Of a stretch of DNA of 64,000 nucleotides, positions 29,584-56,310 are shown in pieces. Source of the DNA: Escherichia phage dw-ec; sequence record OL739525.1, one strand, 5' to 3'. The notes under the pieces were generated by a model. It was not told the origin of the DNA and searched no databases. It was given only the letters and a program-made list of their open reading frames with translations. The translations under genes were made by a program, and so were the position numbers. Position 1 is the stretch's first letter. Each line of letters begins with the position of its first letter.

Positions 29584-32256
29584 ATGTTTCCAATTCCAAT
29601 ATTTACTATTATGACCAGCACTGGTGTCGTTCCTCTGCCAGCGGGTATTGTTAAAAAAGTAATCACTTTAGATTACCCAGATAATGCTGGTAATTCTAAC
29701 AGCAGTTTAGCAATTTTGCTTAATGATGGTAGATTGTTTACTCAAGGCGCAAACCTTTTTGGTGAGATTGCAGATGGAACTCGTAGTGCACGATTCAATA
29801 ATTTCCACTTAGCTTCTACTGTAGTAGCGGATGTGTTTACCGCAGATCGTTGTTTTGTTATTAAAACTAACAGCGGGGGATGGCAATATTCAGGATTGAC
29901 AGCAGGGTTGGTAGGATCTATAGCAGCAGGTGGTACGGATGCATGTGTAACTACTTGGACCAGCTTTCCATCTGTAATAACAGGGACTATCTCTTTAGCC
30001 AATCTTAAAGAGGTTAAAGGAGGGTATAACAATACTCTTTGGTTAATGAATAGCGGTGTTCTTTATGGATCGGGTCAAAACACAGTAGGCAGTTTAGGTG
30101 CAAGCACTACTAACGAAGTTTCTACTCCCCGTCAGATAACAAGTTCAGCAGTTGCTTTTGATGCAGGTTATAACCAATGCTCTTATGTCAACAATGCGGG
30201 AACCTTGCGTGTTTGTGGAGCTAGTAAAGGTTTAGCAGGTAATAATAACACAACAACCGCTTTTGTCAATGCCACGATATCCACTACTGAAACAGTGTAT
30301 GTCAAAGATTACATCAATACAGTTTCCCAGACAATAGTTGTAGGAGATACCTCCGGTGGCGCGGGTACAGTAAACTACTTATATGTTAGATCTAATACAG
30401 AAACAACCTACACTAAACTGGACACCTTTGCAGCAGGTTTCTCAACATGGAAATTTCCACCAAGCCGCCACTCTTTTTTCGTTGGGATCAATAATTCCTT
30501 GTGGGCTATTGGTAAGAACTACACTGCAAACTTAGGTTTGGGATATGATTCTGCGAGCGGAGATCCACTCCAAGTGGGAAAACCAGTTAAACCTGAAGGA
30601 GTGGGTTCCTGGGATATAAACAAGCTCACAAGCGTTCATACGTTGAATATGGATATTACTAACCAATTAGGTTATCAAGGAACCTTTTTCGTTTATAACG
30701 GGGATATGTATTATTCCGGTATTTGGAAAGATGGGAAAGCCTCGTATCTGTTCAATAGTGGTCTAAACTATAATAAATTCACACCAATAGCAAGCTCCGT
30801 GATTACGGGGGATGTTCTGGCAACTGGCTTAACTACAGATTCTTTAGGAATTTGTATTGTAGGTGGAACTAAACAGTTGACACATTCTGTTAGCCCAGAA
30901 GGAGGTAAACTTTTCAATATTAAATACACTTCTTCTGCCCCTGCAAACATGACAATATCATCTACTGGTTTAATGACTTTCCATGCAGAAGGTGGTTTTG
31001 ATGCAGGTATGACAGCCTTAAACGCTGAAGGAACAACTTTATCAGATACCTCTGGAGGATATGCTTCAACATTGAGTGTTTACACCCCTAGCTTATCTGC
31101 GATGGATGTAGGAACAACACAAACAATGGTAGCAGAAATAACGCCAACAGGAGCAGCAAGCTTACCTGGTATGGTTGTTGAGTATACAACTACAGATCCT
31201 AATGTTGCTACAGTAGATCCTACAACTGGTGTAATAACTGGTGTTGGTGATGGTGGTTGTAGAATTGGTTGCACAGCTACATATCAAGGTGTTGTTACCG
31301 CTTCTGATAGTTCTTATTTAACGGTGAACGCTGTTGCGGGAAAGGAGTTAGCTCCATCTCCGAGTAGTAGTTTAACGGTTCTAAACGGATATTTCAACCA
31401 CTCGGCAGATGGGGCAATTACGTTCCCAATTTTATCGGGTACTGTCACACCAGCTAACTTTGTAGTTAAGGTGGATGACGTTGTAATACCTTCAAATAAA
31501 GTAATATTTAGAAATAAAGCTTTCTCTACAGTGGATAGTTATCCAGCAGGAGAATATAGACTGGCTATTGAATTTGCAAGTGCTTCAGTAGTGAATAGTG
31601 TTGATGTGTCTATGGAAGCAAATCCAGATCTTTTAGAATTATGGGGCGGCAACAGAATTGGTTATTCTACAAGCCCAGCCTCACAATTCTTAAAAGGTTG
31701 TGCTAACTTAAGACGAATAACTTCTGATTGTTTTAGTAACACATCTTACACCGGAACATCTATAAGTGGTATCTTCTCTGGCTGTACAAGTTTGACAGCT
31801 ATCCCTGAAGGATTATTCAGTGATGCTTTATTTCCTTCAATGACAACAATGTCAAGCACGTTTGAAGGTTGTACATCTTTAACATCTATTCCTTCAGATT
31901 TATTTAAAAATCTATCAAAAGTTACAAGATATTCTTACACCTTTAAAGATTGCACCTCTCTTGCAGAAGTTCCAGCAGGAATGTTTGATAATATTCCAAC
32001 GAAAGTGACCTCTTTAACAGCTACATTCCAAGGTTGTTTAGCACTTACAGATTTTAATAAAATCTTTAATGACAACCCAGGGTTAACTGTTTGTGGTAAA
32101 CGTGGAGCATTATCTTCTTTCTTTAGTGGATGCACAAATCTTACAGGAACAGGAACAACATTAACAAATACATTAGGCGGAGTAGCTAATAGTTACCTAT
32201 TCAGGTATTGCACAAAACTTTCTGATTATAACAATATTCCTTCGGGTTATAAATAA
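29584..32256 (+). CDS. tail fibre/adhesin with Ig-like and BspA-type leucine-rich-repeat C-terminus
   Basis: 890 aa. Big_2-like segment (PNVATVDPTTGVITGVGDGGCRIGCTATYQGVVTAS). C-terminal repeats of the form F.GCTSLT.IP..LF (FSGCTSLTAIPEGLF, FEGCTSLTSIPSDLF, FKDCTSLAEVPAGMF, FQGCLALTDF, FSGCTNLTG). Confidence 0.55.
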   Translation: MFPIPIFTIMTSTGVVPLPAGIVKKVITLDYPDNAGNSNSSLAILLNDGRLFTQGANLFGEIADGTRSARFNNFHLASTVVADVFTADRCFVIKTNSGGWQYSGLTAGLVGSIAAGGTDACVTTWTSFPSVITGTISLANLKEVKGGYNNTLWLMNSGVLYGSGQNTVGSLGASTTNEVSTPRQITSSAVAFDAGYNQCSYVNNAGTLRVCGASKGLAGNNNTTTAFVNATISTTETVYVKDYINTVSQTIVVGDTSGGAGTVNYLYVRSNTETTYTKLDTFAAGFSTWKFPPSRHSFFVGINNSLWAIGKNYTANLGLGYDSASGDPLQVGKPVKPEGVGSWDINKLTSVHTLNMDITNQLGYQGTFFVYNGDMYYSGIWKDGKASYLFNSGLNYNKFTPIASSVITGDVLATGLTTDSLGICIVGGTKQLTHSVSPEGGKLFNIKYTSSAPANMTISSTGLMTFHAEGGFDAGMTALNAEGTTLSDTSGGYASTLSVYTPSLSAMDVGTTQTMVAEITPTGAASLPGMVVEYTTTDPNVATVDPTTGVITGVGDGGCRIGCTATYQGVVTASDSSYLTVNAVAGKELAPSPSSSLTVLNGYFNHSADGAITFPILSGTVTPANFVVKVDDVVIPSNKVIFRNKAFSTVDSYPAGEYRLAIEFASASVVNSVDVSMEANPDLLELWGGNRIGYSTSPASQFLKGCANLRRITSDCFSNTSYTGTSISGIFSGCTSLTAIPEGLFSDALFPSMTTMSSTFEGCTSLTSIPSDLFKNLSKVTRYSYTFKDCTSLAEVPAGMFDNIPTKVTSLTATFQGCLALTDFNKIFNDNPGLTVCGKRGALSSFFSGCTNLTGTGTTLTNTLGGVANSYLFRYCTKLSDYNNIPSGYK

Positions 32257-32287: not shown

Positions 32288-32322
32288 AAAGTTAACTCTT
32301 CCCATGTTCTTGTGCCGCTTCT

Positions 32323-32345
32323 GGGGGGCCCCCCCCCCCCCCCCC
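32323..32345. repeat. homopolymer tract G6C17
   Basis: GGGGGGCCCCCCCCCCCCCCCCC read directly, in the 3' region of ssb between the convergent gene blocks. Confidence 0.9.
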
Positions 32346-32360
32346 TATAGATCAATAAGA

Positions 32361-33248
32361 TCAGAATGGAATATCATCATCGAAGTCCATTGGAGGTTCT
32401 TCTTGATTACTTGGAGTTGGTTCTGGTTGTGGTTCAGGTTTTTTAACTTCTTTCTTCTCTTCTTTCTTAGGTTGTTCTGCGGAACCACGAATGGCAGCAG
32501 CAACTTTATCAGACAAAGCTAGAACTTTACGAGCAGAGTCAATCAAATCTTCTACAGATACAGTCTTAATGGTATGGTCTTTACAAGCATTGAGGATAGC
32601 GTGACCAACAGATGCCCCAAGATCATAATCATTAATGTCAACGCCACGAGATTCAGCAATTTCCGATTTCAGCGTGACAGTTGCAGATTGAACAACCCCA
32701 GCGATATCGAAAGCATCACCTTTAACACCATTACGAATCAGTTCCAGTGCACCATTTACTGCGTGACCAGTTTCCAGACCTACAGTATCACGTTTTTTAT
32801 AGGACTGCTTAGGAGCAGCATCGTTGGAACCTTTATTGCCAGAAGATTTGTTAGACTTCTGAACACCATCGGTAGACAATACTGTAATACGAGATTTTTT
32901 AGTATTGTAGTAAGTTTTACCGCCTTTATTATCAACGCGATCAATATCAATACTTACTTCTACACCTTTTTCAATAGTGATCCAATTATCACCTTCTTTG
33001 ACTTGCAGGTTTTCATAACCTTCTTTCAGTTCAATGTCACCAAGAGAAATCCAAACACCTTTCTCATCTGGTTTAGCACCTTTCTCTTTCAGAACAAGAG
33101 AAGCTCGGTGAGTTGAAACAATCGTTTTTCCTTCCCAATGAAAAGTTTTAGGTTCAGCGAATTTATCCAGTTTAACGTAGTCTACGATACCAGTTGCATA
33201 AGTTACGGTTTTGCCTTTACGATCAGTTTCAGTATTAATTACGGACAT
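32361..33248 (-). CDS. ssb: single-stranded DNA-binding protein
   Basis: 295 aa ending in the SSB-type acidic tail ...PPMDFDDDIPF, preceded by a Pro/Glu/Lys-rich linker. Confidence 0.8.
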   Translation of the reverse strand: MSVINTETDRKGKTVTYATGIVDYVKLDKFAEPKTFHWEGKTIVSTHRASLVLKEKGAKPDEKGVWISLGDIELKEGYENLQVKEGDNWITIEKGVEVSIDIDRVDNKGGKTYYNTKKSRITVLSTDGVQKSNKSSGNKGSNDAAPKQSYKKRDTVGLETGHAVNGALELIRNGVKGDAFDIAGVVQSATVTLKSEIAESRGVDINDYDLGASVGHAILNACKDHTIKTVSVEDLIDSARKVLALSDKVAAAIRGSAEQPKKEEKKEVKKPEPQPEPTPSNQEEPPMDFDDDIPF

Positions 33249-33264
33249 TATTATCTCCTCTACA

Positions 33265-33657
33265 TTACATTAATTTTGCACAGAAAGAGCGGAGTCTTTC
33301 CATATCATCTTGCTCTAACAGGTATTTACCTTTACCTATTCCAACTCCAATTTCACCATTAGGGAAATGAACTATTTGCACTGGAAAACCTCCGAGTTTA
33401 ATTGTGGCAGCTTTGCCTTCTTCGTCTATAACGTTTCGGATTGTATCTTGCAGTGAAATGAATTCTTTGTTTGTAACAGTGGTTTCAATTATTTCAGATG
33501 TTTCAACACGAGCAGTTAGCTTCTTGTTTCCACCTTGAATAACCAAAATTTGAAAATAAAAAGAGTTGTCAAGACCTACAACATTTTTCTCAACTAGTGT
33601 CAAACTGGTATAGTTTCCATAAACAGTTTCAACAGCTATCTTAGAACGTTCAGTCAT
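33265..33657 (-). CDS. hypothetical protein
   Basis: 130 aa ORF directly upstream of ssb. Confidence 0.45.
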   Translation of the reverse strand: MTERSKIAVETVYGNYTSLTLVEKNVVGLDNSFYFQILVIQGGNKKLTARVETSEIIETTVTNKEFISLQDTIRNVIDEEGKAATIKLGGFPVQIVHFPNGEIGVGIGKGKYLLEQDDMERLRSFCAKLM

Positions 33658-33702: not shown

Positions 33703-34296
33703 TTACCAAGGAATATCCTCTTCTTCCAATCTGGTATCTACTTGAGGTGGACGTGGAACCTTAACCTCTTTCACAAAACGAAGATATGGGAAACGTGTAG
33801 CAATTTTAATAACGTGTTTGGCATCTTCTCTAACGTCTTTGTGCAAGAAGCAGATCCCTGTTTCCAAGGTTGTTTCAAAATCTTTAGAATAATAACAATC
33901 CTTCCCATCAAATGCAGCCTGGCAGATGGACAGATCGAACTCATTTAGAAAGGTTGTCATTACGCTTGGTTCCATAATCATAAGGTTGCAAAGCTGACCA
34001 TCACGTTCAAACTCAAAAACGTGTTTAAGACCAGTAACACCTTCATAATTGTCAGAAGCCTCTTTGTTTCCTAGTTTACGAATATTGGTTCCCATTAAAG
34101 CAGATGCAATTAATCCTTGTATTTGTTCTTCAGTCCGATGTGCAGGAAGGGATGTATAGAAATCAAGATCACGTCCAGCAATATCAAGAATACGCCAATC
34201 ACGAACAGCACCGCCAGCCAAGACAGAATTAGGATCAGCGATCTTTAATACGGTAAGAATTTCTTTGGCAATATTGATTTGTTTTGATTTAGTCAT
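33703..34296 (-). CDS. nucleotidyltransferase-fold protein (CCA-adding-enzyme head-like)
   Basis: 197 aa. Motif VLAGGAVRDWRILDIAGRDLDF matches the pol-beta-type GGxVRD...DxD signature of class II tRNA nucleotidyltransferases. C-terminus ends EEEDIPW. Confidence 0.45.
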   Translation of the reverse strand: MTKSKQINIAKEILTVLKIADPNSVLAGGAVRDWRILDIAGRDLDFYTSLPAHRTEEQIQGLIASALMGTNIRKLGNKEASDNYEGVTGLKHVFEFERDGQLCNLMIMEPSVMTTFLNEFDLSICQAAFDGKDCYYSKDFETTLETGICFLHKDVREDAKHVIKIATRFPYLRFVKEVKVPRPPQVDTRLEEEDIPW

Positions 34297-34925: not shown

Positions 34926-37523
34926 TCAATGACAGGATGCCCAAGAATTCCCCACATCATATCCAGCAGTAAGCTGAACATTAAGATTGTAAAATTCTCC
35001 AGCCTTAGTAACAGCTAAAGCAGCAAGTTCACCTGCCCGACTATAAGCTGTAAACCATCCACCTTTGGGAGATTCATGAATGTTAGCCCAAATTTGCCCT
35101 GTCTCTTTTTCCTTATTATGCTTCCATTCTTCGACTTTAGCAAGGCATTCTTTATCAATTTTCTTTTGTTCTTCAGGATCGTCTACTTTCTTCCAACCTA
35201 ATGATTCAGGTGAAAACCATTTGAATTCTACAAGGTTACGAGAAACTTCAAGCTGGGCTTCATCGTGATATGCAATCATTTGTTGCACGAAGTCTTTATT
35301 CTTCCAGTCATCTTTAAAGAAGTCAACACTTAGCCCTTCTTCTTCGATCATGTCATCATAAATAACCATTGCACGTTTAGCACAGATAACCCCACCGCTT
35401 TGGAACAGAGAGTTAAGAATCGCGTGAGCAGAACGAGTAGGAACCTTACGACCGTCAATACCCAAAACATATTGTTTACCAGTCTTAACCCAGAAATCAT
35501 TTAAACGTTCTTTAAGACGCGCCAATGGGAATGCAGCTTCCCAGAAAGCATCGAACACCAATTGACCTGTAAACTTGTCGCTACCAATTGTTTTAGCAAC
35601 CTTGTCGGCTTGTGCACCATAGGTAATACCATACTTAACAGATTTAGCAGGACTACGTTCAAATTTACGTCCAATAGTTTCAGTGATACGTTTTGCCATC
35701 ATTGTGTGAACATCGTTAGGTTTCTCTAACAACAGAGCGTTACAATATTCGTGTGGCTCTGGCTCGTACCGCCAACAGTAGTGTGATTCAATTTTTGCTT
35801 CCAAAGAGTCGAAGTCGTAGCCAATCTGGAAGTACTTAGGAACCTCTACACCAAACAAGTTACGCATCTCCCATCCAAACAAAGATGTGACACGAGGAAT
35901 ATTAGCTACAGACCTATGCTTCATACGAGAGGTTGCAGCATCACATGTAGCTGCTGGGGTAGGAATACGACCATCCGCCCTTACTGCGGCTAAGAAACCT
36001 TTATCATATTCTTGATCTTCCTCATCTTCTTCCCAATCAGCACCACCGCCTAAAATAGAGTTCCTACGATGCTTATACGTTAAGTATTCTACAATCTGTG
36101 TAGCATAAGGGAATTTCTCACCTAAAGCTTGCAGGTTAGGACAGATTTCTTTTTCCTGACCTTTGGTAAAACATGGGTTAGTCAATACTTTAAGACCGCG
36201 ACCCTTACCTTTTGCTATACGCTCTTGAATCTTCCTCTCCAAGGTTTCCGGTGTGCACTCCAGATGATCACAACGATCCTGACAAAAATTAGAAGACAGA
36301 GTTTGCTCAACGTAAGCTCGAATACCTTTCTGAAGTTCTTCCTCGCTCTTTTTAATCTTGGTGCCAGATTTAAGAGTCAAGTCTTTATCTTTATATTCAG
36401 ACGGTACCCAACCTAATCCTACAAGCCAGTTTTTAATATGGGTAGTATCGTTCAATGTTGCAGGGATATTAGGATCACACAAAGGCTCATCTGCTGCAAC
36501 TGGCAGTTTCCATTCTTTCCCCAACATCACTAACCACCAATCTCCATCCCTCTCTTCCAAATGACCATCATGTTTCTTAGCAAAATTGATCATATGGTTA
36601 GTTGGCTCTAAGTTCTTTTTAATTTGCAACTTAGGTGGAATAAAAGCCTTAAGATAACCTTTTGTTGCTGGTTTAGGTGGCAAAATAGGCTCAACGAGTA
36701 AACGAAGACGCTCCATTTCTGCATCCAAAAAAGCAAGGTTCTCTTCTGCTTGTTTCATGTTAAAAGCAAACCCACGGTGTTCCTGGCGTGTAATAATGTC
36801 TGCTACACGTTGTTCAAGTTCAAATGGACCTTCCCATTTATCATAATCACCCCATTCTTCCATAAGGTAATTATATACGCTCGTATTGGCTTTGTTGTCA
36901 TAGATACAGTAATAAAGCATATCCGCAGCAAAAGTCTTAAATCGATCTTCTTCTGGAATCTCTTTACGGAAATCTATTTTTACATCACCCCCTGCCTTTC
37001 GAGAAAGTGCTGCCAAGCTATGTCCTGATTTGCCCTCAATCTTTCGATCTGGGTTTAACACTTTACTCAAAATCAAGGAGTCAATAAGTTTTACCTTATT
37101 TTTGCCCCACGTATTATATTTAACACTGTAATCTAAACCATAAAACAGTTTTGTAGCCAACCAGTCATAGTTGATACCGTTGTGAGCCACAGCTATTTCA
37201 ACCAGATATTCAGGCTTATCTTTAAAATAACCTTCATGATTAATAAAGTCTGGGAAATCTTTTAGTTGAAAATGTGTGTAATCTTGCGCCACATACTCTT
37301 TAAGAACATATGTGTATTTACCATCTGACTCTTCATAAGAACGCCCATCAAAGATGTATTTAGGGCCATCGTGGAAAGCTACTATTTCTCCTGTTTCATG
37401 GTTCTCTAAGACAATACAGTGCATTTGAAATGTGTCTTTGAGACGATAAGGACTAGCTAAATAATCGATAGTGTCATTATTCAACAATCCGTTTGCTTCA
37501 ATATCCCATGTAAACTTACTCAC
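34926..37523 (-). CDS. DNA polymerase, family A, with 3'-5' exonuclease domain
   Basis: 865 aa. N-terminal WDIEANGL (exonuclease motif) and KYGITYGAQ (motif B-like). Unsegmented. Confidence 0.85.
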   Translation of the reverse strand: MSKFTWDIEANGLLNNDTIDYLASPYRLKDTFQMHCIVLENHETGEIVAFHDGPKYIFDGRSYEESDGKYTYVLKEYVAQDYTHFQLKDFPDFINHEGYFKDKPEYLVEIAVAHNGINYDWLATKLFYGLDYSVKYNTWGKNKVKLIDSLILSKVLNPDRKIEGKSGHSLAALSRKAGGDVKIDFRKEIPEEDRFKTFAADMLYYCIYDNKANTSVYNYLMEEWGDYDKWEGPFELEQRVADIITRQEHRGFAFNMKQAEENLAFLDAEMERLRLLVEPILPPKPATKGYLKAFIPPKLQIKKNLEPTNHMINFAKKHDGHLEERDGDWWLVMLGKEWKLPVAADEPLCDPNIPATLNDTTHIKNWLVGLGWVPSEYKDKDLTLKSGTKIKKSEEELQKGIRAYVEQTLSSNFCQDRCDHLECTPETLERKIQERIAKGKGRGLKVLTNPCFTKGQEKEICPNLQALGEKFPYATQIVEYLTYKHRRNSILGGGADWEEDEEDQEYDKGFLAAVRADGRIPTPAATCDAATSRMKHRSVANIPRVTSLFGWEMRNLFGVEVPKYFQIGYDFDSLEAKIESHYCWRYEPEPHEYCNALLLEKPNDVHTMMAKRITETIGRKFERSPAKSVKYGITYGAQADKVAKTIGSDKFTGQLVFDAFWEAAFPLARLKERLNDFWVKTGKQYVLGIDGRKVPTRSAHAILNSLFQSGGVICAKRAMVIYDDMIEEEGLSVDFFKDDWKNKDFVQQMIAYHDEAQLEVSRNLVEFKWFSPESLGWKKVDDPEEQKKIDKECLAKVEEWKHNKEKETGQIWANIHESPKGGWFTAYSRAGELAALAVTKAGEFYNLNVQLTAGYDVGNSWASCH

Positions 37524-38825: not shown

Positions 38826-38852
38826 ATTTTTAATAAAAGGGCCGAAGCCCTT
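38826..38852 (-). terminator. rho-independent terminator overlapping primase-helicase stop
   Basis: AAGGGC-TTCG-GCCCTT (UUCG tetraloop) then UUAUUAAAAAU on the minus strand. Confidence 0.55.
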
Positions 38853-40629
38853 AATAGTTGCTATCCGTAGGCAAATTAGCAGGATTGTTGAAATACTGCT
38901 CTTTGTCATGCAGAGTTGCAGTTCTAATGTCATAGTAAAACTGCCCTGCCGGACCAGTTTCCGAGAACTCACGGTTTTTTAGGATAAAGCAATGAGTCGT
39001 ATTGCGTTCTACAGGGTCTTCAGCGGCTTTATCTCGTTCCAAAGCCAAGGTAATACCAGCACCTTTAGCCAAAAAACTACTACCCATTGCATCGTCCTCT
39101 GTTAAGTGTTCATTGCCACCATTAGCCGATTTCTTAACGTGTGAGATGACGATAATAGTTATAGCGTACTCTTTCATGATGCGCTTCAACCATGTTGCTA
39201 ACTCTTCCTGGGCTTGAACATCCATACCAGAAAGCAAATCAGAATAAGGGTCGATAACAAGAATTGTTACTCCAAAATAGATGATCATCTCCAAAACTTT
39301 TTCTTTGATAGACTCCACATCTGCTCCACGATCATCACACACATAAAAACGTGGTGATCCATCTTCTCTTTCGTAAAAATCTAGGATTTTTTCTTTATTC
39401 TCTTCCAAGATTTGAAATTTCTCTTCCGGTGTTTTCCTGTGTAGAGGAATATGCAGGAACGAGGACAACAGGTTACGAGAATATTTCTTATAAGTTGCTT
39501 CCAAGGACAGAATACCCAAGGTATGTTCTGGGTGAGCAACAATAATATGTTTGGTGATCTCGTTCACCATCAAAGTTTTACCGATACTGGTCTTTGCCAG
39601 GATCACTGTAATCTCTTCCTCTACTAAACCACCACCCAGCATATTTGCAGCAACACGCATAAAAGGAGGCAAGGTAATCATCTTGGATTCCAAGCATTCT
39701 AATGCAGCTTCATACAAGACATTAGAAGCATAAACACCTGCTGGGGTGTATAGACGAGCACTCCAAAAAGCTTTTACGAAATCTTTTGCACGACCTTCTT
39801 CCAGATACTGATTGGCATCCTTAAGATCCATCTGCATACGGTAGACTTTGTTACGGGGCAGCACCTTAACAATATTTTCAAATGCCTCATTACCTGCTTT
39901 GTCATTATCCATGCAAACAATAATCTTCTTAAATTTTTCAAAGAAAGGATATTGTGCCTGAACTTGTTTATACATACTGGTTTCACCAGTTGTGCCACTA
40001 ACTACTGCTGGAAGTTCATATTTGTTGTCCAAGTTTTCAGACAACATTTGATAAGCTGCCAGAGCATCGTGTTCACCACCTGTAATTACCACAGTATGAG
40101 AACGGTCTGCAAAACGAATTTGTCCAAAAAGATCTACATCTTTACCTACTTGACCAATAGGTTTACTGAAATCTTTAGGATGGATACGACGCTTAAAACC
40201 AACCAATTCTTTACCGATGGTAGTTGGATATAAACAACTTTCTACTACCATCTGATCCCCTTCCTGACGGTATTCATAACGAACACCATAGAAAGATGAA
40301 ACTTTTTCTTTAATGCCTCGATAACCACGTGGGTTGGTTGATGTTTCTTGAACAATTTTACGATGAATCTGTTTATTAAATTCCGAACCCACAATCTCCT
40401 CCTCTTCTTCTAAAACTTCACCATTTTCTCGTAACCATTCTACGCTAGGAATAGTGTATTCACACGCAAAGCACTTAGCACCTTTATGCTCTCCATTAGA
40501 ATCTAATCCATAAACCATCAGGTTATTACGAGAGCGATCCTTGCCATTTTTCATGCAGCGCGGACAACCTGTATGCCCTTCCTTGCTAAGATCAACATCA
40601 AATCCATATTTAGTTATAATGTGCGACAC
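38851..40629 (-). CDS. DNA primase/helicase (T7 gp4-like)
   Basis: 592 aa. N-terminal Cys4 zinc ribbon (CPRCMKNG...CFACEY) and a C-terminal DnaB-like Walker A (ILAKTSIGKT). Confidence 0.8.
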   Translation of the reverse strand: MSHIITKYGFDVDLSKEGHTGCPRCMKNGKDRSRNNLMVYGLDSNGEHKGAKCFACEYTIPSVEWLRENGEVLEEEEEIVGSEFNKQIHRKIVQETSTNPRGYRGIKEKVSSFYGVRYEYRQEGDQMVVESCLYPTTIGKELVGFKRRIHPKDFSKPIGQVGKDVDLFGQIRFADRSHTVVITGGEHDALAAYQMLSENLDNKYELPAVVSGTTGETSMYKQVQAQYPFFEKFKKIIVCMDNDKAGNEAFENIVKVLPRNKVYRMQMDLKDANQYLEEGRAKDFVKAFWSARLYTPAGVYASNVLYEAALECLESKMITLPPFMRVAANMLGGGLVEEEITVILAKTSIGKTLMVNEITKHIIVAHPEHTLGILSLEATYKKYSRNLLSSFLHIPLHRKTPEEKFQILEENKEKILDFYEREDGSPRFYVCDDRGADVESIKEKVLEMIIYFGVTILVIDPYSDLLSGMDVQAQEELATWLKRIMKEYAITIIVISHVKKSANGGNEHLTEDDAMGSSFLAKGAGITLALERDKAAEDPVERNTTHCFILKNREFSETGPAGQFYYDIRTATLHDKEQYFNNPANLPTDSNY

Positions 40630-56085: not shown

Positions 56086-56310
56086 TTAAAATGGAAGTCT
56101 TTGAAGTTCATCTCCTCCGATATCAAGTAATTTAGCAACATCTCGATCAGAAAGCAACTCTTTTCTTTGTAAAATATCCACAAGGGTTGCAAGAATATCC
56201 TTAACGTCCCGATCACTGTTCTTCAAAAGTTCTCCTGCCGTCCCTACTCTATCTCCTACAGCAAAATATGTAACCATAAAACCTCCTAAGTTAATCTGAT
56301 TGCCAACCAC
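56086..56310 (-). CDS. hypothetical small protein
   Basis: 74 aa ORF overlapping the nrdG start region. Confidence 0.35.
   Translation of the reverse strand: MVGNQINLGGFMVTYFAVGDRVGTAGELLKNSDRDVKDILATLVDILQRKELLSDRDVAKLLDIGGDELQRLPF

Follow-up and report, generated by a model that had tools for sequence, protein, structure and literature searches.

The 64,000-nucleotide (nt) stretch of Escherichia phage dw-ec analysed here (OL739525.1; hereafter the window, by which we mean the whole stretch) comes from a phAPEC8-like Phapecoctavirus (Stephanstirmvirinae) with ~99% identity to Escherichia phages ETEC-TG and MRostami-2023b. A gene on the window's minus strand, at 33703..34296, encodes a minimal nucleotidyltransferase (NTase) of 197 amino acids (aa), whose last residues resemble the C-terminal tip (SSB-Ct) of SSB, the protein that binds single-stranded DNA. 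The gene's open reading frame (ORF) begins with ATG, its start shares 8 nt with the stop of the upstream ORF, and its product matches PHROG 10174 and PHROG 1614 in a PHROGs search, both described as 'nucleotidyltransferase'; GenBank records of related phages label the gene either 'putative tRNA nucleotidyl transferase / poly(A) polymerase' or 'nucleotidyltransferase'. Residues 24-47 read SVLAGGAVRDWRILDIAGRDLDFY and the C-terminus reads DTRLEEEDIPW, and a check of the ORFs showed that the sequences, coordinates and 197-aa length given in a preliminary description of this DNA were all correct. The protein consists of a structured core (aa 1-176) and a disordered linker and tail (aa 177-197).

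The neighbouring genes of interest are also on the minus strand. The first gene downstream (33265..33657) encodes a 130-aa protein of unknown function (PHROG 16560), and the second (32361..33248) a 295-aa SSB-like protein that matches PHROG 4477 (function unknown) together with SSB-tail PHROGs and is annotated as a single-stranded DNA-binding protein in several GenBank records. Four genes upstream of the NTase lies a family A DNA polymerase (Pol A; 34926..37523), annotated as DNA polymerase I in relatives, and a gp4-like primase-helicase of 592 aa follows at 38851..40629, called primase/helicase in phage anhysbys and assigned to our cluster 1, which corresponds to PHROG 239. In Stephanstirmvirinae-type loci the 130-aa gene always stands between the NTase and SSB-like genes (cluster 7; position +1 in 5 dereplicated loci and also in contig P0020, where primase-helicase, Pol A, NTase and a 129-aa gene repeat the order seen in the window), and its product is a possible partner of the NTase or of the SSB-like protein.

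To place the NTase, an exhaustive phmmer search was made, which returned 264 cluster representatives at E ≤ 1e-3, mostly of 175-230 aa; an alignment of 113 family members (A2) served for all conservation counts, for AlphaFold2 (AF2) modelling and for hhalign. Across the 113 members G28, G29, D43 and D45 are invariant, and A27, A30, R32, D33, W34 and K164 are at least 90% conserved. The Pol-beta superfamily is described by the patterns hG[GS], [DE]h[DE]h and h[DE]h (PMC7291057), which appear in the window NTase as A27-G28-G29, D43-L-D45-F and F94-E95-F96 and are intact because the catalytic residues are conserved in A2. Motif A (aa 26-47; 34156..34221, minus strand), LAGGAVRDW...D43-L-D45-F-Y, contains the two catalytic aspartates and aligns with the GGxVRD...DxD of CCA enzymes and poly(A) polymerase I (PAP I), and E95 in F-E-F (34012..34014, minus strand), at the third-carboxylate position of h[DE]h, is E or D in 77 of the 113 members. 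A motif-B-like segment (aa 118-127, N-E-F-D-L-S-I-C-Q-A; 33916..33945, minus strand) pairs with RRDLTINA of E. coli Cca and includes the conserved residues F120, S123, I124 and C125; Gad2, discussed below, contains the corresponding FDF[TS][VI]C. In the motif-D-like helix (aa 156-170, R-E-D-A-K-H-V-I-K-I-A-T-R-F-P; 33787..33831, minus strand), EDxxH replaces EDxxR; H161 (H/Y), K164, R/K168 and F169 are conserved and E157 and D158 are variable. Some family members carry in addition N-terminal extensions of 90-200 aa (L043, L045, L046 and L058 from IMG/VR; P0054, P0099 and P0127), composed of ~60-aa repeated modules with YFK.H..EEY or of a small N-terminal domain, and no Pfam family matched these extensions.

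Searched as a single sequence, the window NTase scores 13.8 bits against Pfam PolyA_pol (PF01743), under the gathering score of 23, falls far under the cut-offs of the NCBIfam CCA models and finds nothing meaningful among PDB sequences; PF01743 recognises 17/113 family members at E ≤ 0.01. The family profile, when compared with the PDB, matches class II CCA/poly(A) enzymes only (best E 2.7e-4; 6ibp, 3aqk and 1miv are among them), in agreement with the preliminary description, which had placed the NTase signature near the head of class II tRNA nucleotidyltransferases. The AF2 model built from A2 has a mean predicted local distance difference test (pLDDT) of 89.5 and a predicted template modelling score (pTM) of 0.83, is structured to ~residue 176, and displays the alpha/beta palm fold that the same description had made one touchstone of its proposal. 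In a Foldseek search of the PDB the top 26 matches are class II CCA-/A-adding tRNA nucleotidyltransferases, with a template modelling (TM) score of ~0.55 (query-normalised), and in structure comparison ~150 residues superpose on class II enzymes at 2.6-2.9 Å, with Pol X, terminal uridylyltransferases, MenT1 (7.7), alarmone synthetases and cGAS/DncV-like nucleotidyltransferases (CD-NTases; ≤6.2) ranking below them. Profile search, Foldseek and structure comparison thus all uphold the view of a minimal, Pol-beta-fold protein of class II (CCA/PAP) lineage. [quoted passage not shown]

The same comparisons bear on the idea that the protein is a nucleotide-signal enzyme, which would make or consume a signal in the manner of cGAS/DncV-like or alarmone-like enzymes, or act as a decoy, for example by inhibiting the nucleotide-sensitive GajA nuclease. 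The structure scores of CD-NTases and alarmone synthetases are far under those of class II enzymes, a PADLOC search gave no match for the window NTase, and an SSB-type tether is hard to reconcile with the synthesis of a diffusible signal; we regard this idea as extremely unlikely. Membership in the cGAS/DncV-like families, which the preliminary description had listed for checking, is rejected on the CD-NTase scores and the PADLOC result. Membership in the MenT, AbiEii or MNT toxin-antitoxin families was likewise considered and rejected, the closest fold being a different one and the gene-pair context of such systems being missing.

Kinship with class II enzymes does not by itself make the protein a CCA enzyme, and we therefore set it against E. 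coli Cca and PcnB, using the reference sequences of MG1655. By hhalign, A2 gives 41.8% with Cca and 68.6% with PcnB, the motif A region alone being aligned, and motifs B-D were compared by spacing and local pairwise alignment. Remnants of motifs B, C and D occur at the canonical spacing of both E. coli enzymes, and local alignment, unaided, pairs REDAKHVIKIATRF with PcnB REDPVRMLR-AVRF. The arginines of the motif B RRD contact the incoming nucleoside triphosphate; both are gone from the window NTase, which has N118-E119-F120-D121 where Cca has KRRD and PcnB has QRRD. The EDxxR of motif D is an amino-acid template that reads CTP and ATP (PMC11784652; PMC8563995), and in selection experiments on it the Glu alone tolerated replacement (PMC11784652). 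The window NTase reads E157-D158-x-x-H161 instead, with H at the last position in 71 and Y in 36 of the 113 members. At 197 aa, against 372-517 aa for solved class II chains, it is also too short for the complete set of neck, body and tail domains: the polypeptide stops directly behind the motif-D helix, so that the body and tail, which bind tRNA, are absent. Thus four features by which class II CCA enzymes and PAP are defined are missing, namely motif B, motif D, the neck/body/tail domains and a PF01743 score above threshold. What the protein shares with class II tRNA nucleotidyltransferases and PAP I (PF01743) is the palm/head fold, motif A and the B/C/D remnants; unlike them, it is half as long, has neither body and tail domains nor motif E, belongs to a family in which the ED is variable, and sits in a DNA-replication rather than a tRNA context. 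As read from the alignments, the nucleotide pocket is remodelled (RRD to EFD, EDxxR to EDxxH), and we are highly confident that the window NTase is not a CCA enzyme. A stand-alone 'CCA-adding enzyme head domain' exists in Streptococcus pneumoniae (NP_344798.1; PDB 2la3); it is cellular, 13% identical, and uninformative on mechanism because its PDB title assigns no function.

A tRNA-directed role could still take the form of a minimal CCA-, CC- or A-adding enzyme or poly(A) polymerase serving phage tRNA maturation or the repair of damage inflicted by a defence. The best sequence and structure matches are, after all, class II CCA/A-adding enzymes and PAP I, the window NTase retains E157-D158 of motif D, a long homologue directly follows a tRNA array in Seunavirus GAP31 (described below with Gad2), and one short-form locus (L042, with the tail NNIPF) adjoins 11 tRNA genes. 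OLD-family nucleases can be tRNases, as is P2 Old (bioRxiv 10.64898/2026.07.10.737580), and full-length CCA enzymes of jumbo phages are thought to repair tRNA (PMC7824862). These points have to be weighed against the missing body and tail domains, the lost motif B arginines, the His or Tyr in place of the templating Arg, and the selection result according to which that Arg does not tolerate replacement. They also have to be weighed against genomic context, which we surveyed by an IMG/VR pattern scan that gave 80 loci, or 53 after dereplication at 80% NTase identity, window included. Only 5/52 related loci have a tRNA gene within 7 kb, no tRNA genes were found in the 64-kb window, and no RNA ligase or polynucleotide kinase recurs as a neighbour in the 53 loci; an association of the short family with tRNA arrays was rejected on the first two of these results. 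We hold a tRNA-end enzyme to be quite improbable, and the tRNA 3'-end (CCA) repair proposed in the preliminary description is not borne out, given the missing domains, the missing arginines of motif B and EDxxR, and the replication context. Replicating phage DNA, and not tRNA in need of repair, is the probable place of action of the NTase.

The second feature that sets this protein apart is its C-terminus. The last 7 residues, E-E-E-D-I-P-W (aa 191-197; 33706..33726, minus strand; pLDDT <50 at residues 192-197), form a free end after a variable, low-confidence linker (aa 177-190; 33727..33768, minus strand; pLDDT 61 at residues 181-190), and they repeat the layout of D-D-D-I-P-F, with an acidic run followed by I-P-aromatic. 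The DDDIPF tip of E. coli SSB serves as a hub for protein interactions (PMC5872125), and in T7 both gp4 and gp2.5 use their acidic C-tails to bind basic patches on the polymerase, gp5 (PMC12593628; PMC12339929). The NTase tail is like these peptides in its C-terminal site, acidic run, I-P-aromatic and disordered linker, and it is encoded in the same operon as an SSB-like protein bearing the host tip; it is unlike SSB-Ct, gp2.5 and gp4 in being carried by an enzyme instead of an OB-fold (oligonucleotide/oligosaccharide-binding) DNA-binding protein or a helicase, and in having Trp for Phe. The SSB-like protein ends PPMDFDDDIPF and is indeed encoded two genes downstream, as the preliminary description had it. 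In BLASTP its 295 residues match E. coli SSB at the C-terminus and nowhere else: the final 12 (EPPMDFDDDIPF; 32364-32399) agree with the tip of E. coli SSB at every position, and PSN stands upstream in both. Because the similarity is confined to the C-terminus, it looks as if the phage has put a copy of the tip of host SSB on a protein otherwise unrelated to it.

The tail of the NTase is kept where the sequence next to it is not. The ending [D/S][I/F]PW is found in 10 of 10 homologues with identities of 58% or more, and the 10-20 residues before it vary among them in length and sequence; the NTase of Citrobacter phage Tr1 (38% identity) ends KPKDIPW. When the family was clustered at 50% identity, 8 of the 150 representatives had an IP[F/W/Y] terminus, where 0.2 would be expected (binomial P ~5e-11), the tails being DDIPW (x2), NDIPW, DTIPF, DGIPF, PYIPF, KPIPF and ESIPY. 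Inside the sequences the same tripeptide occurs at the expected frequency, and in 14/150 the C-terminal residue is aromatic and follows 2 or more acidic ones. The SSB-like C-terminus noticed in the preliminary description is thus a genuine, conserved SSB-Ct-like peptide on a disordered linker. Across the 53 loci, in which 1227 ORFs were called with a simple greedy caller and clustered by BLASTP, acidic/aromatic or IP[FWY] C-termini occur on 12/15 SSB-type proteins, 6/35 primase-helicases, 6/53 NTases and 1/1124 of all other ORFs (NTase versus other, Fisher's exact P = 4e-8), and one SSB-type cluster ends D[I/V/T]PW. Such tails are near-exclusive to SSBs, primase-helicases and the NTase, which therefore carries the address label of replisome components. 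That the resemblance is functionless, and the protein a plain small NTase of unassigned role, would agree with the tailless state of most family members and with the frequency of acidic C-termini in phage proteins; it accords poorly with a tail kept across a variable linker, found ~40-fold over expectation and shared almost exclusively with SSBs and primase-helicases, and we consider it highly unlikely. On balance we think it reasonably likely that the tail is a functional docking motif, as predicted from these patterns.

Some further occurrences of the motif deserve mention. In the window, xP[FWY] C-termini are found on 3 of ~80 ORFs: the NTase, the SSB-like gene and a 74-aa ORF (56086-56310, minus strand) that ends ...GGDELQRLPF and may be a coincidence; the ORFs just upstream of it are, as we take them from sequence, the anaerobic ribonucleotide reductase genes NrdD/NrdG. 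In phages Tr1 (L002 6064-7035) and alia (L003 6026-6973) the DDDIPF/DEDIPF of the SSB-like protein is internal and followed by a conserved 15-residue extension, APIGLQYGRNFLHCF, so that the canonical tip is not at the free C-terminus. A correlation between NTase tail and SSB-tail architecture was considered and dropped as unclean, since Tr1 combines DIPW with the extended SSB and alia has the same extended SSB without DIPW. Several homologues of Gad1 from RF39 gut phages (Supplementary Table 9, bioRxiv 10.1101/2023.05.01.538930) contain an internal E-I-D-D-D-[I/V]-P-F-E-H, which is identical to the SSB-Ct core and may be due to chance.

If the tail docks, its partner may belong either to the host or to the phage. 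One version looks to the host, with the NTase as an SSB-tail decoy or protein modifier that blocks or AMPylates host SSB-Ct binders such as ExoI, RecQ, RecJ, PriA or defence helicase-nucleases. The NTase tail closely resembles E. coli SSB-Ct, and the exact copy of the host tip on the SSB-like protein suggests exploitation of the host SSB interactome. Minimal NTases elsewhere modify proteins (MNT/HEPN, GlnE-type), which likewise counts in favour of a modifier. The small class II-like NTase gp22 of Klebsiella phage fHe-Kpn01, a putative relative of the window NTase, is toxic in E. coli on overexpression (PMC7291057). Set against this, what class II enzymes are known to do is to extend nucleic-acid 3' ends, not to modify proteins, and non-enterobacterial tails resemble the gp2.5/gp4 tails of the local phage rather than the host SSB tip, which points to a phage partner. 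We judge the decoy or modifier to be improbable, and the phage family A DNA polymerase is, we suggest, a candidate docking partner of the NTase tail.

The position of the gene in related genomes adds to the argument for docking at the replisome. Pol A (cluster 2) lies within five genes of the NTase in 22/53 loci, as does the gp4-like primase-helicase (PHROG 239) in 22/53, and one or the other is found within five genes in 31/53 and within 7 kb in 39/53; further recurrent neighbours are HNH endonucleases, a 5'-3' exonuclease (PHROG 107) and gp2.5-like SSBs (PHROG 112). When one genome per species was scanned for 185,579 species, seven NTase loci appeared, all on phage-like contigs of metagenome-assembled genomes, and the family is therefore phage-restricted in practice. 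Small NTases are also known from Autographiviridae. ORF16 of LKD16 (phiKMV-type) is a remote homologue (hhalign 90.3%, with fold matches in BFVD) positioned between the helicase and ligase/polymerase genes, and both it and gp28 of Pectobacterium phage PP47 resemble the window NTase in their ~180-200 aa and class II-like head; they differ in being 13-19% identical in structure alignments, and LKD16 ORF16 has no aromatic tail. The genome maps of Pectobacterium Autographiviridae in PMC7693777 list a nucleotidyltransferase (NT) among the replication genes, and the small NTase gene is reported there in 37/46 Pectobacterium Autographiviridae against 60 of >500 others. As excerpted, PMC7693777 and PMC7291057 record such NTases as putative CCA enzymes with no assigned role, and mention no SSB-like tail.

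This setting would also suit a terminal transferase that is tethered to the replisome as a replication accessory and has no defence role, tailing, or trimming and filling, the 3' ends of RNA primers, nascent DNA or genome termini in normal replication or concatemer processing. The NTase gene is repeatedly flanked by primase-helicase, Pol A, SSB and exonuclease genes of its own strand, its type of tail is common to SSBs and primase-helicases, and a class II core normally extends a nucleic-acid 3'-OH. Yet the distribution in Autographiviridae is patchy and host-linked, and T7 has no NTase gene, which is atypical of a core replication function; moreover, the closest studied relative of the NTase, Gad2, is an anti-defence protein. 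We regard such an accessory as unlikely, although it retains appreciable weight.

Gad2 (~400 aa; ORF_159 of Bacillus phage SPbetaL7) is required to overcome the Gabija defence, a Brevibacillus homologue blocks Gabija on co-expression, an NTase domain is predicted in Gad2 by AlphaFold, and the SPbetaL7 protein is toxic (bioRxiv 10.1101/2023.05.01.538930). Using sequences from the supplement of that paper, we found by hhalign that A2 matches the verified Brevibacillus Gad2 at 95.2% and a 9-sequence Gad2 alignment (A3) at 97.5% (E 7e-12; 116 columns; Gad2 residues ~24-142), a stronger match than those to LKD16 ORF16, PcnB or Cca. The aligned region runs from motif A through FDF[TS][VI]C...FD and includes the next strand and helix. 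A Gad2 hidden Markov model (HMM) gives positive scores for many family members, and among precomputed matches to PF26128 (Gad2) that of P0126 is significant, that of P0099 weak and those of P0009, P0020 and P0130 faint, with none recorded for the 90% cluster of the window protein. By these sequence comparisons the family is homologous to the Gad2 NTase domain, which is the closest functionally studied relative of the window NTase. Both share AGG...DxD[IVF]Y followed by FDF[TS][VI]C...FD and both are restricted to phages and prophages. They differ in that Gad2 has TS where the window family has a near-invariant RDW after GGA, in that an acidic/aromatic or IP[FWY] tip is found in 0/9 Gad2 sequences (A3), and in genomic position: in SPbeta-like phages Gad2 belongs to an anti-Gabija locus, elsewhere it adjoins a tRNA array, and the window NTase lies in a replication module. 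The Gad2 HMM found no second, full-length Gad2 in the 64-kb window. The tRNA case is that of Cronobacter phage GAP31 (Seunavirus; L097 7001-8425), where a 474-aa Gad2 homologue lies directly downstream of an array of ~26 tRNA genes, which hints that some long-form Gad2-like NTases may connect with tRNA biology.

The homology to a Gabija inhibitor revives, in altered form, the suggestion of the preliminary description that the protein counters host defences: counter-defence as such gains support, and its tRNA-repair version does not. OLD-family defences, including P2 Old, Gabija and retron-OLD, are reported to sense phage replication through single-stranded DNA, DNA ends or SSB (bioRxiv 10.64898/2026.07.10.737580). 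The family also behaves like an accessory gene, being confined to phage-like contigs and patchy and host-linked in Autographiviridae, and toxicity on expression is known for both gp22 of fHe-Kpn01 and SPbetaL7 Gad2. We propose that the tail replaces the missing RNA-binding domains as a device for targeting the substrate: it would dock the NTase on SSB-tail sites of phage Pol A, of the primase-helicase and/or of host proteins in the SSB interactome, and so concentrate it on SSB-coated replication intermediates, where a 3'-OH end or some other acceptor at hand would receive nucleotides from it. Phage replication would then probably be shielded from defences that survey replication intermediates, such as Gabija and other OLD-type systems. 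Here we infer the tail docking, the identity of the partner, the substrate and the anti-defence outcome. A counter-defence role for the window NTase is a tentative assignment that falls somewhat below an even chance, and the whole chain, a Gad2-like NTase tethered to the replisome/SSB hub and acting in counter-defence, is the reading that we prefer, at nearly the same strength and likewise below an even chance. A more general idea is that SSB-type peptides are portable labels on enzymes that are neither SSBs nor helicases. A Gad2-like NTase would then ride the SSB hub to SSB-coated intermediates, or to a host SSB-tail-binding helicase or nuclease that surveys them, and neutralise a replication-sensing defence, nucleotidyl transfer disabling the trigger or the effector of a Gabija/OLD-type system; this generalisation is speculative and, on present evidence, unlikely.

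Several observations weigh against a tethered, Gad2-like counter-defence enzyme. The case for the short-form family is wholly computational, being built on sequences and models. Between 85 and 90% of family members, approximately, have no SSB-like tail, and tethering is therefore not a family-wide requirement; among Stephanstirmvirinae themselves, the Justusliebigvirus homologues (e.g. alia) end ...EEFKI. The tip has Trp for Phe, so its fit to SSB-Ct pockets is assumed by analogy. Position in a replication module may reflect shared early or middle expression timing instead of shared function. With regard to Gad2, BLASTP of the window protein against it is non-significant, so that the link rests on profile-profile comparison and on the precomputed Pfam matches of other members; the ~250 additional C-terminal residues of Gad2 are absent here and function may not transfer; the paper on Gad2 gives no mechanism (bioRxiv 10.1101/2023.05.01.538930); and the GAP31 homologue beside a tRNA array makes a tRNA-related activity conceivable for the wider clade.

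The NTase gene itself, small phage 'CCA-like' NTases and the reach of the Pfam Gad2 family to some relatives are already known. In the literature we found no SSB-tail-bearing NTase and no characterised phage mini-CCA enzyme, no report of the SSB-type tail on this family or its recurrence, none noting that such tails are almost confined to SSBs, primase-helicases and this NTase, and none that links the 'putative tRNA nucleotidyltransferase' genes of replication modules with Gad2. Dozens of Phapecoctavirus genomes and many Autographiviridae label such genes 'tRNA nucleotidyltransferase/poly(A) polymerase', a label that is very probably wrong for the Stephanstirmvirinae-type family, to which our verdict is limited, the wider set of small phage NTases being only remotely related. 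Through the Gad2 link, the action of Gad2-type enzymes can be studied on sequences that are far more numerous and simpler, and the tail together with the replication-module context directs attention to SSB-coated intermediates and SSB-tail binders, where OLD/Gabija systems are reported to sense. If the tail docks the NTase, the SSB-tail interaction is a 'currency' reused to address accessory enzymes, with a bearing on replisome biology, phage counter-defence and the drugging of SSB-Ct interactions. If SSB-type peptides are portable labels in the wider sense, this would give a first mechanistic handle on Gad2-family proteins and explain many 'putative tRNA nucleotidyltransferase' genes in T7-type replication modules. 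Phage-therapy work on E. coli makes use of Phapecoctaviruses, and it would be useful to know which defences they evade.

One minor feature lies next to the SSB-like gene. An insertion of ~47 nt at 32304-32350 occupies the intergenic space between an 890-aa tail-protein ORF (which ends at 32256) and the SSB-like stop at 32361, and reads on the plus strand CCCATGTTCTTGTGCCGCTTCTGGGGGG followed by ~18 C. It is missing from the otherwise 100%-identical sequences of MRostami-2023b and ETEC-TG, from phage anhysbys and from one IMG/VR contig. The C homopolymer suggests an artefact of sequencing or assembly, or else a scar in a hotspot for mobile elements, and in phages nepoznato and Mt1B1_P17 an endonuclease gene occupies the same intergenic site.

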